From Candidatus Babelota bacterium (GTDB taxonomy: Bacteria; Babelota; Babeliae; Babelales; JABDEC01), in contig JABDEC010000004.1 in the NCBI GenBank assembly GCA_013287265.1, positions 1,403-65,402 on the forward strand: DNA of 64,000 nucleotides, read 5' to 3'. Position 1 is the stretch's first letter. Each line of letters opens with the position of its first letter. The notes under the pieces are model-generated. The model searched no databases, was not told the DNA's origin, and saw only the letters and a program-made list of their open reading frames with translations. Shown piece by piece: positions 9,648-23,928 of this stretch. The translations under genes and the position numbers were made by a program.

Positions 9648-12600
9648 ATGAAATCTTATAAAATTCTTTTATTTTTAATTTTAATAATAAATTCTTTTTC
9701 TATTTCTTCGGAACTATCAAAGAATGACGGTAGCCAAAAAGAAAATGAACTTGAACAACTTTTCAATGACTGTCTTACAAGACAATATCCTTACAACAAA
9801 CTAGTGATTGATCAAGGCAGCGAGGAAATTAAAAAGAATTTACAAGTCAATGGTAATCAAGTCATATTAGGAAATTTAACAGTTGGTGGCACAATTTCAA
9901 ATGGTAGCTGTTCCTCTCCTAAAATTAATTCCGGATCGTCAACGGGAACTACAGGAACAACCGGATCGCCAGGACTTTCTGGAGCAACAGGAACGACTGG
10001 CACAACTGGTTCAAGTGGTACAACAGGAATAACTGGCTCAACCGTCACTGGAAATACTGGAAGCACAGGCACAACAGGAGATCCAGGAACAACTGGAACA
10101 ACTGGAACGCCTGGTACGACTGGATTTGGTATAACTGGAACAACAGGGACAACTGGATCAACTGGAACTAGTGGTACAACTGGAGATACAGGAATAACCG
10201 GAGATACTGGTTTGGATGGTTCTTTGGGTACTATTGGAACTCCTGGCGCAGCAATTACTGGAGCAACCGGAACAACCGGAACTACGGGAGATACAGGAAG
10301 TACAGGACAGACTGGAGACACAGGTTCTACCGGAATGACAGGGGCAACAGGAACAACTGGATCTGTTGGGTATACAACTACCGGTTCAACTGGAACAACC
10401 GGAACTTCATTTACCGGGACAACTGGTGCAACAGGTTTTACAGGTTCGTTTGGCTTTACGGGAACCACTGGAACAACTGGAACAACCGGATTATCTTTTA
10501 CTGGAACAACAGGAACAACAGGCACACCAATTACCGGGACAACCGGTTCGACCGGGGATACTGGAATTACCGGATTGACGGGATCAACAGGAACTTCTGG
10601 TATACAAGGTTTATCATTTACGGGAACAACAGGAACAACAGGAACAAATGTTACCGGTGCAACTGGAGCAACGGGCGATACAGGATCTACGGGATTAACC
10701 GGTGCAACTGGAACTACGGGTTCAATTGGATATGTATTTACAGGAACAACAGGAACAACAGGAACAAATGTTACCGGTGCAACTGGAGCAACGGGCGATA
10801 CAGGGTCTACGGGATTAACCGGTGCAACTGGAACTACAGGTTCAATTGGTTACGTATTTACAGGAACAACAGGAACAACTGGAACAAATGTAACTGGAAC
10901 AACTGGAGCAACGGGTAATACAGGGTCTACTGGATTAACCGGTGCCACTGGAACTACAGGTTCAATCGGTTATGTATTTACAGGAACGACAGGAACAACG
11001 GGAATTAATGTTACTGGTTCGACAGGAATAACCGGTAACAGTGGATCTACAGGATTTACTGGAACTACAGGTTCTAGTGGATCGACAGGTTCTACTGGAA
11101 ATACTGGATTAACTGGTATTACTGGTTCATTAATAACGGGAACAACCGGAACTGAAGGAACGACGGGAACAATTGGGACACCAGGAACAACAGGAACTCA
11201 AGGAACTATGGGATTTAATAGTGTAACAGGAGAAACAGGAACTACTGGTTCGACTGGAATCGGGCAAACTGGTTCAACTGGAACAACGGGATTAGTCGGA
11301 ACATTGGGAACTTTTGGGACATCAGGAAGTACTGGTCCAACTGGAGCGACGGGAACAACTGGAGTAACTGGAACATTTTCCACCGGAACAACTGGAACGA
11401 CTGGTTTAACGGGAACTCAAGGAAATTTAGGAACTTTTGGTACGACTGGAAGTACCGGTCCAACAGGACCGACGGGAACAACTGGAACTTCTGGAACTAA
11501 TACGACAGGAAGTTCAGGAAGTACTGGTGCATCTGGTATCACAGGTTCAACGGGAAATACTGGTTCTACAGGTTCTACTGGTTCTACTGGTTCTACCGGA
11601 ACAACTGGAACAACTGGAACATTTGTAACTGGCACAACTGGAACTACTGGCATGATAGGAAATATGGGAACTTCCGGATTTACTGGCTCAACAGGTTCAA
11701 CTGGTTCAACAGGCGATACGGGTTCAACTGGAAGTACAGGAATTTCAACCACAGGATCAACTGGAATTACAGGAACTACAGGTTCAACAGGAAGTACAGG
11801 ATTTAGTGGCTTCACTGGCACAACTGGAACAACTGGGGATACGGGACTGACAGGAATAACCGGATTTTCAGGATCGACAGGTTTTACCGGAGCCACAGGC
11901 ACAACTGGTTTAACCGGAACTACGGGTTTTACTGGAATATTTGGTTCATCAGGATTCACAGGTTTTACAGGATTTATTGGTGCAACAGGTTTTACGGGAT
12001 TGACAGGAACAACCGGATCTGCTGGTTCAGCAGGTACAACCGGAGTTACTGGTTTTACAGGATCAACTGGAACAACTGGAGCAACTGGAGCAACTGGAAC
12101 AACTGGAACAACCGGTTCAGTTGGAACAACTGGATTTACTGGTTCTACAGGATTTACTGGCTCAACGGGTTCAACTGGACAGACCGGTCTAACCGGTTCA
12201 ACTGGATCAACGGGAACAACAGGAAGTGCAGGTTCACTTGGAACAATAGGAGCTTCAGGATCCAGTGGTTCAAGTGGAACAACAGGTCCAACTTTAAATG
12301 ATTCTCCTTTTGCATTTAACCCACAAATTGATCCGGTTTCTAGACAAATTAATTGGTCAATTGGAGCATCTCAGGGAATTAATACAATTTTAACTACTAA
12401 CAGGACTTATAATAGAATTTATGGAAAATTTGTTGCATCAAATACAAATCAAAATATTTTTTCTGTAGAAAAAAATAAATTAAATTTATGGATTGCTGGT
12501 GGAGGTACATCAGGAACGACACTTTATTATAGTTCCGACGGAATAAATTGGATTGCAGTCCCTAGCTCACCTTTCACATCTCAAGTAAATTTTATTGCGT

Positions 12601-22100: not shown

Positions 22101-23928
22101 TGCAACTAGTGCAGATGGTATTAATTGGACCGGAGTAGCAAATTCAACAAGCATTTTTTCAATAGCCGGAAATGGTGTAGTTTGGAATGGTTCACAATTT
22201 GTTGCAGTAGGTCAGGGGACAAATACAATTGCAACAAGTCCGGACGGGTTAACTTGGACGGGTCGTGGAAATATTATGTTTTCATTTGGAAATGATGTTG
22301 CATGGAATGGATCATTATTTGTTGCCGTTGGAAAACCATCTGGTAGTGGCTCAACGAATAATACAATTGCTACAAGTCCGGATGGAATAACATGGACAGG
22401 ATTAGGTTCAATAATGTTCAGTCAGGGAAATGCTATTGTTTGGAATGGCACAGTCTGGATTGCTGGCGGTACTCCATCAGGAAGTAATCCTACAAATAAT
22501 AGTTTGGCATACAGTTATGATGGCAAAACATGGATAGGAATAGGAGTTAATAATCCACTTGCTACAAAGGTTTTGGGTTTGGCCTGGAATGGAGAATTAT
22601 TTGTTGCCTGCGGACAAGGAGGAACTAATAATACTTTATCTTACAGCTCAATTGGAACTACTGGTTGGAATACAGGAGTAAATTCGCCTTTTGCATTTGG
22701 AATTGGGCCTGCTGTCAATAACGTAAATTGGAATGGGACAAGATTTGTTGCCGGAGGTGCTAGTATAAATACTACTGTAGCTTATAGCAATGACGGTATT
22801 CATTGGAATACTGGAAGTCCTTCCGGTCTTTTTTCATCTCAAGGTTACAAAGCTACTTATTCAACAATTGGAAGTTATGCGTTGCCTGCTTTATCAAGAT
22901 GGGTGGCAGTAGGTAAGAGCAATAATATTCTTTATAGCGGGGATGGAATTCATTGGACTGCGGCTTCTTCTCAACCAGTGACTTTTAATGCACAACAACA
23001 AGCCGCTGTTGCATGGAATGGCAATATGTGGATTGTTGGTGGGGCAAATGGAGCAATGGCTTATAGTTTTGATGGAAATACATGGACCAGCATTATTTCT
23101 CCGTTCACAAACTATTGTGCAGGTATATCATGGAATGGCGTAATGTGGATTGCTGTTGGACTAGGCACTAATACAATTGCTCGTAGTACAGATGGAATTA
23201 ATTGGATTGGAGAGGGAGATCCGTTTGGAGGTGGAACAGGCCAGTCAATTGTATGGAATGGAACTTTATGGGTCGCTGGAGGAAGTGGATTGAATAATCC
23301 TTTTCTTTATAGTTATGATGGAATAAATTGGACTTCTGGGAGTGGCTCTACAGTGAATACAGCATATTCGATCGCCTGGAACGGTTCAAAGTTTGTTGCT
23401 GTTGGTAGTCCACAAACTAGTTCAACAGGCTTTAGCACAGATGGAATACATTGGAGCGCAGGAACAAATATATTTTCTAATGGTTATGGAGTTACCTGGA
23501 ATGGTTCAATATTTGTTGCTGTTGGTCAAGCAGCTGCAGGTGGACAAAACAATACAGTTGCTTTTAGTTCTGATGGAATAAATTGGACGGGCGAAGGTAA
23601 TATACTATTCGATACAGCTGGAGGCTATGCAATTGCCTGGGACGGAAAAATATTTATTGCGGTTGGAAATGGCGGGGTTGGTTTCAACAATATAGCATTC
23701 AGCTCTGATGGAAAAACTTGGACTGGTGAAGGTAATGTATTTACAGTCCCAGTTTCAAGCCCCGGTGATGGACTTGCTGTTGCCACTACAAATGATTATC
23801 GTGGTTTTATGAGATCATACTTATTAACAACAGGAATTAATCTTGCAGCAGGAGATGTTATTTCTGCAATTGCTCCTGCTTTTTATGATCAATCAATGAC
23901 ACAGGCTTCAATAACTTTGAGTACTTAA
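19141..23928 (+). CDS. Secreted collagen-like fibre protein C
   Basis: Paralog of A and B; starts 2 bp after the stop of B. Confidence 0.85.
19970..20520 (+). repeat. 120-bp (40-aa) tandem repeats in collagen C
   Basis: The 60-base lines starting at 19981 and 20101 are identical; further copies at 20221, 20341 and 20461. Confidence 0.9.

Follow-up and report, generated by a model that had tools for sequence, protein, structure and literature searches.

Three tandem genes, here called A, B and C, encode collagen-like proteins in a 64,000-nucleotide stretch of Candidatus Babelota bacterium DNA (GenBank assembly GCA_013287265.1, contig JABDEC010000004.1, positions 1,403 to 65,402 of the forward strand; this whole stretch is called the window). 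The three proteins follow one plan, with a signal-like N-terminus, a small N-domain, a stalk of Gly-X-Y triplets and a large C-terminal head. Their stalks have equal numbers of triplets once interruptions are allowed for, and the interruptions lie largely on a common lattice. An earlier note, made from the sequence alone, had proposed that the chains keep identical register and form a single 1:1:1 heterotrimeric fiber with three different heads. The shared plan was borne out, but the step from plan to heterotrimer was not: the chains fall out of register repeatedly along the stalk. In the explanation given somewhat better than an even chance, A, B and C are paralogs that are transcribed together and encode secreted collagen-like fibers, each chain forming its own homotrimer, so that the fibers would be of equal height with different tips.

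Gene structure and domain layout

The genes and their parts are as follows, with lengths in amino acids (aa) and confidence of structure models given as the predicted local distance difference test (pLDDT).

9648..14426, + strand: gene A, 1592 aa; the frame opens at a TTG at 9618, and the ATG at 9648 gives 1592 aa
9945..12293, + strand: stalk of A (aa 100–882, 783 aa), with 246 intact Gly-X-Y triplets, 21 two-residue breaks and 1 Gly-to-Ser triplet
12294..12479, + strand: neck of A (aa 883–944), conserved in B, C and outside relatives; pLDDT <50 in the monomer model
12480..14291, + strand: head of A, about 14 four-stranded blades, read as two beta-propellers
14292..14423, + strand: C-terminal tail of A (aa 1549–1592), a motif common to outside relatives; pLDDT <50 in the monomer model
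14426..19138, + strand: gene B, 1570 aa, laid out as A
14675..17008, + strand: stalk of B (aa 84–861, 778 aa), with 239 intact triplets, 29 two-residue breaks and 1 substituted triplet
17009..19135, + strand: neck, head and tail of B, 59–63% identical to A
19141..23928, + strand: gene C, 1595 aa, laid out as A
19399..21744, + strand: stalk of C (aa 87–868, 782 aa), with 241 intact triplets, 25 two-residue breaks and 2 substituted triplets
21745..23925, + strand: neck, head and tail of C, 44–54% identical to A and 46–50% to B (aligner-dependent)

Open reading frames (ORFs) and junctions agreed with what had been described: three tandem, same-strand genes of 1592, 1570 and 1595 aa, in which the stop codon of A and the start codon of B share one base (TAATG) and B and C are separated by a gap of 2 bp (TAG-TT-ATG). 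Judged from the sequence, genes that overlap and abut in this way fit co-expression. For the stretch around the A/B junction, no RNA run is listed; one DNA run holds the stretch and may be the source sample.

The order of parts in each chain is a signal-like N-terminus (hydrophobic in A, B and C, as judged by eye), an N-domain of ca. 60–80 aa, a stalk of ca. 780 aa, the neck, the double beta-propeller head and the C-terminal tail. In A, the signal-like segment covers aa 1–21 and the N-domain aa 22–99. The stalk ends, when recomputed, fell within 5 nt of the earlier figures, and the length of roughly 780 aa each holds. All three stalks matched Pfam Collagen (PF01391; E = 4.4e-79 for A, 6e-63 for B and 1.2e-70 for C), and Gly recurs at every third residue over long runs, the longest unbroken ones being 60 triplets in A and 73 in C. 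Past the stalk, about 710 residues per chain have no Pfam match.

Plan of the stalks

The Gly-X-Y pattern is broken 22 times in A, 30 times in B and 26 times in C, nearly always by two extra residues between triplets (Gly-4 residues-Gly). Because the deletion of one Gly codon leaves exactly this arrangement, each two-residue break was read as a triplet that had lost its Gly and was counted as one triplet-equivalent. On this count the stalks are 268 (A), 269 (B) and 269 (C) triplet-equivalents long. Once A is shifted by 2, the alignment resolves into 19 units of 14 triplet-equivalents in which the breaks fall at two fixed places per unit, and 30 of the 38 distinct break sites lie on the common period-14 lattice. 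The match in length (783, 778 and 782 aa) thus follows from the equal number of units, and the small differences follow from the numbers of Gly deletions (21, 29 and 25). The breaks also share a residue signature: the X residue of the triplet preceding a break is hydrophobic in 47 of 74 cases, compared to 129 of 648 elsewhere, and Thr occupies the second break position in 55 of 74, although the p-value and independence of these counts are overstated because the units are related.

Mapping of the interruptions in all three stalks demonstrated colinearity well above expectation. Within ±3 residues, 20 of 22 sites in A coincided with sites in B, 22 of 26 sites in C coincided with sites in B, and 19 of 22 sites in A coincided with sites in C, the last figure having been taken at a 37-residue shift that is about one repeat unit and hence partly reflects shared periodicity. 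A shuffled-segment null had means of 9.5–12.4 (standard deviation about 1.7), and the observed values were reached in 0 of 300 shuffles. Such colinearity is also predicted by the descent of all three genes from one 19-unit ancestor.

Within the lattice, each gene carries a block of 120-bp tandem repeats.

10497..11018, + strand: 120-bp tandem repeat in A, 4.3 copies, 86% matches; lattice units about 5–9
15344..15776, + strand: 120-bp tandem repeat in B, 3.6 copies, 89% matches
19969..20521, + strand: 120-bp tandem repeat in C, 4.6 copies, 88% matches; includes a 124-bp exact repeat, so that the copy number is uncertain

These repeats begin 552 bp (A), 669 bp (B) and 570 bp (C) into the stalk, and sit where the earlier note had placed them. 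Its 40-aa architecture (a 5-residue break, 2 triplets, a 5-residue break and 8 triplets) and the peptides that it quoted were found in all three genes. Its remark that the 120-bp units are alike within a gene and unlike between genes was likewise upheld: for units 6–9, DNA identity is 79–83% within a gene and 57–60% between genes, and the homogenized block occupies these same units in each gene. The parallel, matched expansions that it had supposed in the three genes were not. Positional homology of stalk units between genes was undetectable, the positional DNA identity (0.56–0.58) being equal to the non-positional identity; together with the higher identity within genes, this is the pattern left by homogenization of an inherited array inside each gene. 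The stalks are 56–60% identical to one another, no more than their composition predicts, and, at the level of sequence, the only positional signal between them is carried by the pattern of breaks. The longest exact direct repeats are 124 bp in C (19970/20090), 62 bp in A and 38 bp in B.

Register of the three chains

The identical register that had been claimed for the chains exists inside the repeat block (units 6–9) and is lost elsewhere through chain-specific breaks. Sixteen of the 38 break sites are common to all three chains, 9 are shared by two, and 13 are private to one; 7 of the 13 private sites are off the lattice. Each chain-specific loss of a Gly slips the chain by one residue, and the relative register consequently shifts along the stalk. 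It changes 18 times between A and B, 14 times between A and C and 12 times between B and C, leaving offsets of 8, 4 and 4 residues, respectively, at the stalk end. Under the best rigid shift, the glycines are in phase over 47% (A-B), 50% (A-C) and 40% (B-C) of the length, where chance gives 33%. In the last quarter, B is broken at 189, 145, 65 and 42 residues from the stalk end, whereas A and C run unbroken for 60 and 73 triplets.

Heterotrimeric collagens have three distinct chains, which are encoded here, and a Gly register and breaks that match along the whole helix, which these chains do not have. The earlier note had itself held that its fiber would be refuted if the interruptions failed to align outside the repeat block; in the strict sense, they do fail to align there. 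An in-register 1:1:1 fiber finds no support in the small share of common sites, the repeated changes of register and the low Gly phase, while the notion of three matched chains on one plan is retained in the equal triplet-equivalents, the 14-triplet unit and the lattice. A homotrimer, for its part, is indifferent to chain-specific breaks because each change sits in all three copies. The private breaks, the Gly phase of 40–50% and the terminal breaks of B amount to the drift that self-pairing of each chain would produce.

In designed and animal heterotrimers, a code of salt bridges sets the order of the chains. Such coding of chain choice is impossible in these stalks because they are nearly chargeless (D+E, 1.5–1.7%; K+R, 0–0.3%).

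The N-domain and a predicted trimer

The N-domains of A, B and C are 48–52% identical overall, and contain one block that is far more conserved.

9843..9896, + strand: conserved N-domain block (A aa 66–83), 15 of 18 residues invariant across the trio; forms the core of the interface predicted for the homotrimer

Three copies of A aa 22–135 were predicted to bind one another with a score of 0.52, compared to 0.00 for the best of three controls. Among proteins solved as pairs of one chain, 20 of 30 reached the mark used for this score, as did 1 of 23 solved as single chains; the prediction departs from that calibration in using its own three-row alignment and three copies. The runs agreed in at least 81% of contacts, and the partner pLDDT was at least 63. 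The tightest contacts were made by construct residues 45–62, which correspond to A aa 66–83. The first 12 Gly-X-Y triplets also lie in the predicted interface, and for this part the pass may come from likeness to solved triple helices. This modeling supports the feasibility of a homotrimer formed via the N-domain. A search with the N-domain of B (aa 1–90) among proteins of 863–2748 aa gave 33 candidates, none of which scored.

Stalk composition and helix stability

The stalks contain 0.3–1.3% Pro, very little charge (as above) and 45–47% Thr+Ser; Thr makes up 55–71% of the residues at Y and 28–36% of those at X. The usual stabilizers of bacterial triple helices, Pro at X and/or charged pairs, are therefore not found in them. 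Bacterial collagens typically have 19–31% Pro at X (PMC8968730), and a (Gly-Pro-Thr)10 peptide forms only a random coil when its Thr carries no glycan (PMC11923368). Eight GT2 and three GT1 glycosyltransferase domains in the genome scored over the family cut-offs, all of them elsewhere than in the window, where none was found. Glycosylated Thr and the periodic hydrophobic breaks may together stabilize the stalk.

The head, its relatives and its distribution

A model of A aa 883–1592 made with AlphaFold2 (AF2) from 18 aligned relatives had a pLDDT of 78.6 and about 14 four-stranded blades, and the head is accordingly modeled as two beta-propellers. The top structural matches in the PDB were two-propeller proteins, namely LRP6 and GH74 xyloglucanases (Foldseek E about 1e-17; template-modeling (TM) score about 0.3). 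A sequence search of the PDB with the head returned 0 matches at E up to 1. The blades were considered as Asp-box (BNR) repeats and this was rejected: their S-x-D-G-x-x-W motif is one residue shorter than the Asp-box, and Pfam BNR did not match.

The neck, the blades (“WNG...AYS.DG..W”) and the C-terminal tail match a family of propeller-head fiber proteins associated with giant viruses. Among 8000 candidates scored, 3675 proteins were related to the head at E ≤ 0.001, the best outside relatives being 46–52% identical over 84–99% of the head. The family occurs on 11 IMG/VR contigs, including two giant-virus metagenome-assembled genomes (MAGs), and the BFVD matches included collagen-repeat proteins of Hokovirus HKV1 (A0A1V0SF56; Foldseek E = 2.4e-14) and Klosneuvirus KNV1 (A0A1V0SKR9; E = 5.6e-09). 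On sequence similarity, the nearest relatives by descent are giant-virus fiber proteins that combine collagen with a propeller. PF22847, which is precomputed on relatives, gave no match to the trio in the local Pfam copy, and the family is left without a name here.

Within bacteria of this kind the head is rare. Of 61 relatives, counting the window's genome, 2 had it; none of 7 genomes from the same family did, and across the phylum it turned up in 2 of 261 genomes, the match in the other genome being weak (E = 7e-11). Another 62 metagenome loci carry it, none more than 52% identical. Owing to this rarity in the phylum and to the low identity of the metagenome loci, no orthologous trio was available in which co-variation of stalk lengths could be followed.

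Inside the genome, the family comprises the trio and one fragment on contig C22. The fragment (G000:C22:4935-5282; locus L008) matches with E = 4e-19 and 49% identity, has a 138-aa open frame with one internal TAA, and is probably a gene remnant.

For each trio head, the best end-to-end match within the set compared is another member of the trio. Bit scores are 719 for A-B, 463 for C-A and 443 for C-B, and C scores at most 358 against any outside protein. By these comparisons, the trio arose by local duplication and is not an old conserved set of three groups.

Seventy-three related loci were assembled from viral and metagenome collections, some of them being the same contig fetched twice. Collagen-plus-head ORFs are present in 29 of the 73. 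Same-strand arrays of at least two head genes occur in 16 of 73 and of at least three in 3 of 73, two of those three being without collagen. The three arrays that carry collagen have matched triplet counts: 60/57, 82/80 and 16/16/15. By these counts, the head family makes a habit of matched stalks in tandem paralogs, pairs that cannot be 1:1:1 among them.

The array with 16/16/15 triplets is locus L130 (3026–13417), on a metagenome contig of 29% G+C, and consists of three tandem genes of 1179, 1110 and 1129 aa. They have a Pro-rich collagen segment of 15–16 triplets, a neck and head of the trio type and related N-termini, with no signal-like start.

Weighing of the explanations

Dependentiae are intracellular parasites of protists, and the explanation preferred here is framed for such a cell. 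Each chain would be exported by a Sec-type signal. The N-domain (ca. 60–80 aa) would trimerize and probably anchor the fiber, the stalk of ca. 780 aa would measure about 220 nm if triple-helical, and the head of two beta-propellers would most likely bind a ligand on the protist host; attachment to the host by fibers with virus-type heads may reasonably be supposed, and no more than supposed. At two fixed places per 14-triplet unit, a triplet has lost its Gly, the break being marked by hydrophobic residues. All three genes would have descended from one 19-unit ancestor by local duplication in the order (A,B),C. The units would then have been homogenized within each gene by recombination, with their number kept equal by selection on fiber length. 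Each chain would most likely be homotrimeric, giving three kinds of fiber of equal height with different tips. In this picture the gene structure, the lattice, the paralogy, the fold of the head and the phyletic pattern come from the analysis itself, whereas the triple helix, the homotrimeric composition, stabilization by glycosylated Thr, the role as an adhesin and selection on length are inferred.

Two observations favor selection on height. One is the matching of stalks in the tandem arrays of related loci. The other comes from a fourth collagen-like gene in the window, designated D.

2..1546, + strand: 3' part of the collagen-like gene D; the whole ORF is G000:C4:3-2945 and is truncated by the contig start

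The stalk of D has about 253 triplet-equivalents, with breaks every 9–10 triplets (another repeat plan) and another head, and fits a common fiber height reached without co-assembly.

Several points weigh against the homotrimeric explanation. The length of the D stalk rests on an ORF cut at the contig start, and the unit count of C, and hence the exact match in length, is uncertain because it depends on assembly through the 124-bp exact repeat. Equal unit number despite homogenization requires some constraint, and co-assembly supplies one as readily as selection on height does. Translational coupling would suit a complex in which A, B and C are equimolar subunits. The predicted N-domain interface, with its 15 of 18 invariant residues, displays no chain selectivity and nothing that would prevent mixing. 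Natural heterotrimers such as C1q carry unequal breaks at one shared level and so tolerate them, and most of the differences within the trio lie on the shared lattice. Finally, the low Pro and near-zero charge make the triple helix itself conditional.

Under co-assembly, A, B and C would enter one fiber of ca. 220 nm with up to three different tips, either as a fixed ABC trimer or in free combination, and the lattice would provide re-registration points or hinges. We regard co-assembly in this broad sense as unlikely. Its strict form, an obligate 1:1:1 heterotrimer in which the lattice is kept by co-assembly, would account for the three coupled genes, the equal triplet-equivalents, the 16 sites common to all chains, the placement of the homogenized block in the same units of each gene and the conserved N-domain interface; the further trio at L130 and the gene triplets of Pasteuria ramosa (PMC13233619), for which heterotrimers have been suggested as a possibility (PMC7743900), could be cited in its favor. 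It is less likely than three homotrimeric paralogs, and we judge it improbable: 22 of 38 break sites are not common to all three chains, the register changes 12–18 times per pair, B is broken where A and C are continuous for 60–73 triplets, charged residues to set chain order are absent, and no chain-selective difference was seen in the predicted interface. Moreover, two-gene arrays and collagen-free trios are as common in the head family, and the local duplication behind the trio does not provide three old groups. Promiscuous mixing, in which trimers such as AAA, AAB and ABC would all form, with unequal sites bulging by one residue and with combinatorial tips, is nearly as doubtful, if slightly less so. 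It is consistent with coupled expression, with the 30 of 38 sites on the common lattice and with core interface residues that are invariant while the N-domains as a whole are 48–52% identical, and for Pasteuria a combinatorial variety of mixed trimers has been put forward (PMC7743900). The 13 private sites (7 off lattice) and the extra breaks of B in the last quarter argue against it, and the in-silico pass belongs to the AAA homotrimer, the one set modeled; no mixed natural bacterial collagen is stated in the available part of the review PMC8968730.

Two further explanations question the fiber or the DNA itself. The Gly-X-Y region might not be a triple helix at all, but an O-glycosylated, mucin-like spacer or some other Gly-rich fold in which the breaks are turns or glycosylation punctuation. 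The missing bacterial stabilizers and the Thr+Ser content point in this direction, as does the need of Thr-based peptides for glycosylation in order to fold (PMC11923368). Strict Gly at every third residue in runs of up to 73 triplets, the very high Pfam Collagen scores and the single, hydrophobically marked type of break are hard to reconcile with it; in addition, the first 12 triplets take part in the modeled trimer interface, ordinary Pro-rich collagen segments occur at the same place in relatives of the head, and the GT2 and GT1 domains of the genome could supply glycans. This alternative, too, we hold to be improbable. An artifact, in which the island of surface-protein genes (window 1–25700) would be giant-virus DNA that was mis-assembled or mis-binned and the equal lengths would come from collapsed repeats, is considered very improbable. 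The island does lie at a contig end, its G+C is 39–47% compared to 26–31% elsewhere, the head family is in 2 of 261 phylum genomes yet on giant-virus contigs, and C contains the 124-bp exact repeat. However, genes between and beside the fiber genes have the G+C of the genome (0.28 and 0.31), and the high G+C of the stalks follows from Gly and Thr codons. A, B, C, the neighboring delta-60 proteins and the protein downstream have signal-like N-termini, which were not seen in the viral relatives examined. The longest exact repeats of A and B are just 62 and 38 bp, and the stalk DNA is 56–58% identical between genes, so that the genes are not copies of one collapsed gene.

Comparison with known systems

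Pasteuria ramosa is a host-attached parasite that keeps its collagen-like genes in triplets, and these are thought to encode fibers for host attachment (PMC13233619); heterotrimers or combinatorial mixed trimers are raised there as a possibility only (PMC7743900; McElroy 2011, as cited in these papers). The trio resembles those triplets in comprising three adjacent collagen-like genes of the same orientation, an organization that “seems to be unique to P. ramosa” according to PMC13233619. It differs in other respects. Each Pasteuria triplet combines members of three old groups, one apiece, and the genome contains many such triplets (PMC13233619); the heads are BclA-like and the stalks rich in Pro and Thr. 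Here there is one trio only, in another phylum; its members are mutual nearest relatives, so that neither the three old groups nor the repetition is found, and they have double-propeller heads and a nearly Pro-free stalk.

The fiber proteins of giant viruses that contain collagen repeats share a homologous neck, propeller head and C-terminal tail with the trio (46–52% identity for the best relatives). In contrast, the viral relatives examined have no signal-like N-terminus, their collagen segments are short or Pro-rich, and the 14-triplet lattice is absent from them; the N-domain of the trio was found in none of the 33 candidates compared with it.

BclA of the Bacillus exosporium nap, Scl1/Scl2 and Lcl have a comparable arrangement of an N-terminal anchoring or trimerizing domain, a Gly-X-Y stalk with Thr at Y and a distal head, and are homotrimers (PMC8968730, PMC7743900). 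The trio has a stalk that is several times longer, Pro-poor and regularly broken, and a double-propeller head of ca. 600 aa. Scores of A, B and C against the NCBIfam models for Scl and Lcl (NF038329, NF038330 and NF046116) were below the curated cut-offs (SclB, 182–230 vs. 325; Lcl, 177–239 vs. 500; SclA, 154–189 vs. 400), and LPXTG is absent from the C-termini, which end in ...TLGN, ...TVGN and ...TLST.

C1q A/B/C and collagen IV are similar in having three different chains with breaks at shared levels. The chains of the trio have almost identical predicted N-domain interfaces, and one break in three is private, whereas in animal heterotrimers a non-collagenous domain selects the chains (PMC8968730). 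The likeness of the head to GH74 xyloglucanases and LRP6 is one of fold only, namely two consecutive beta-propellers: the TM score is about 0.3, identity is 10–16%, no PDB chain matched in sequence, and there is no sign of enzyme activity.

Terms for trimers do not occur in the available part of PMC10987987. A literature search on Dependentiae with collagen gave nothing relevant among the titles and abstracts, by which the papers returned were judged to be microbiome surveys only.

Significance

If the homotrimeric explanation is true, the trio would give a Dependentiae parasite of protists an adhesin system unusual among bacterial collagen-like ones, with stalks of ca. 780 residues (among the longer ones described) that are nearly free of proline and charge and have strictly periodic deletions of single Gly residues. 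Propeller heads otherwise found mainly on giant-virus contigs would suggest that bacteria and giant viruses entering the same hosts have attachment hardware in common and have probably exchanged genes. The Thr-rich, Pro-free stalk would offer a natural test case for a helix stabilized without proline or charge pairs, possibly by glycosylated Thr and hydrophobic breaks. The equal unit number, shared lattice and near-identical trimerization motifs make the trio suited to asking whether natural bacterial chains mix. Were co-assembly to be true instead, this would be a natural heterotrimeric bacterial collagen without proline or charge pairs, whose heads come from a gene pool held in common with giant viruses of the same kind of host.

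Genomic setting

The genome is 0.93 Mb in 28 contigs and is 88% complete. The fiber genes belong to a ca. 25-kb island of probable surface proteins situated at the contig end (window 1–25700). Downstream of the island is ordinary bacterial chromosome, with YicC, YebC, RuvB, FtsW, UvrA, MutS, Kup, tRNAs and ankyrin proteins; the RuvB is 70–78% identical to those of Candidatus Dependentiae/Babeliales MAGs. The raised G+C cited above applies to the three fiber genes (window 10001–24000) as compared to the remaining window, and the genome-like values are those of 8001–10000 (0.28) and 24001–26000 (0.31). The high G+C of the fiber genes, heads included, fits a foreign origin or a strong amino-acid bias. 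The excess was seen to extend into the head-coding parts, at about 0.39–0.40.

The other genes of the island are as follows.

1577–3583, 4827–6869 and 6926–8950: three paralogous, secreted-looking proteins of 668, 680 and 674 aa with delta-60/DUF5122 beta-propeller repeats, just upstream of the trio
8994..9584, + strand: polytopic membrane protein of 196 aa without a named family, immediately upstream of gene A
24006..25685, + strand: 559-aa Cys-rich protein with a signal-like N-terminus and an aromatic last residue, downstream of the trio

Gene D has an N-domain motif (“VGGN.TISGNL”) resembling that of the trio and ends in a different, small head of ca. 150 aa. This head had no PDB sequence match (best E = 1.4), its single-sequence AF2 model was unusable (pLDDT 31), and no significant similarity was found to the C-terminus of the adjoining delta-60 repeat protein (E = 0.14). 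A first impression that it is C1q- or BclA-like was left unsupported by the model and the sequence searches.

Two of the three delta-60 proteins were scanned and matched TIGR02608 (E = 1e-67 to 3e-72). The 196-aa membrane protein is structurally close to unnamed clusters in Acidobacteriota and Pseudomonadota (TM 0.91–0.94). The 559-aa protein matched neither Pfam nor NCBIfam. Its Atlas model (predicted TM score, 0.81) aligned with clusters carrying PF13557, an outer-membrane barrel family (TM 0.54/0.74), and on this structural lead alone the protein may be an outer-membrane partner of the fibers.

Scans for promoters and terminators were uninformative, returning fewer sites than shuffled sequence (36 vs. 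46.1 and 6 vs. 8.9, respectively); the terminator scan, so limited, placed none between the fiber genes. Three ankyrin-repeat proteins are encoded among the housekeeping genes (27557–28147, 38730–39479 and 47866–49272), and proteins of this kind are common in intracellular bacteria of protists.

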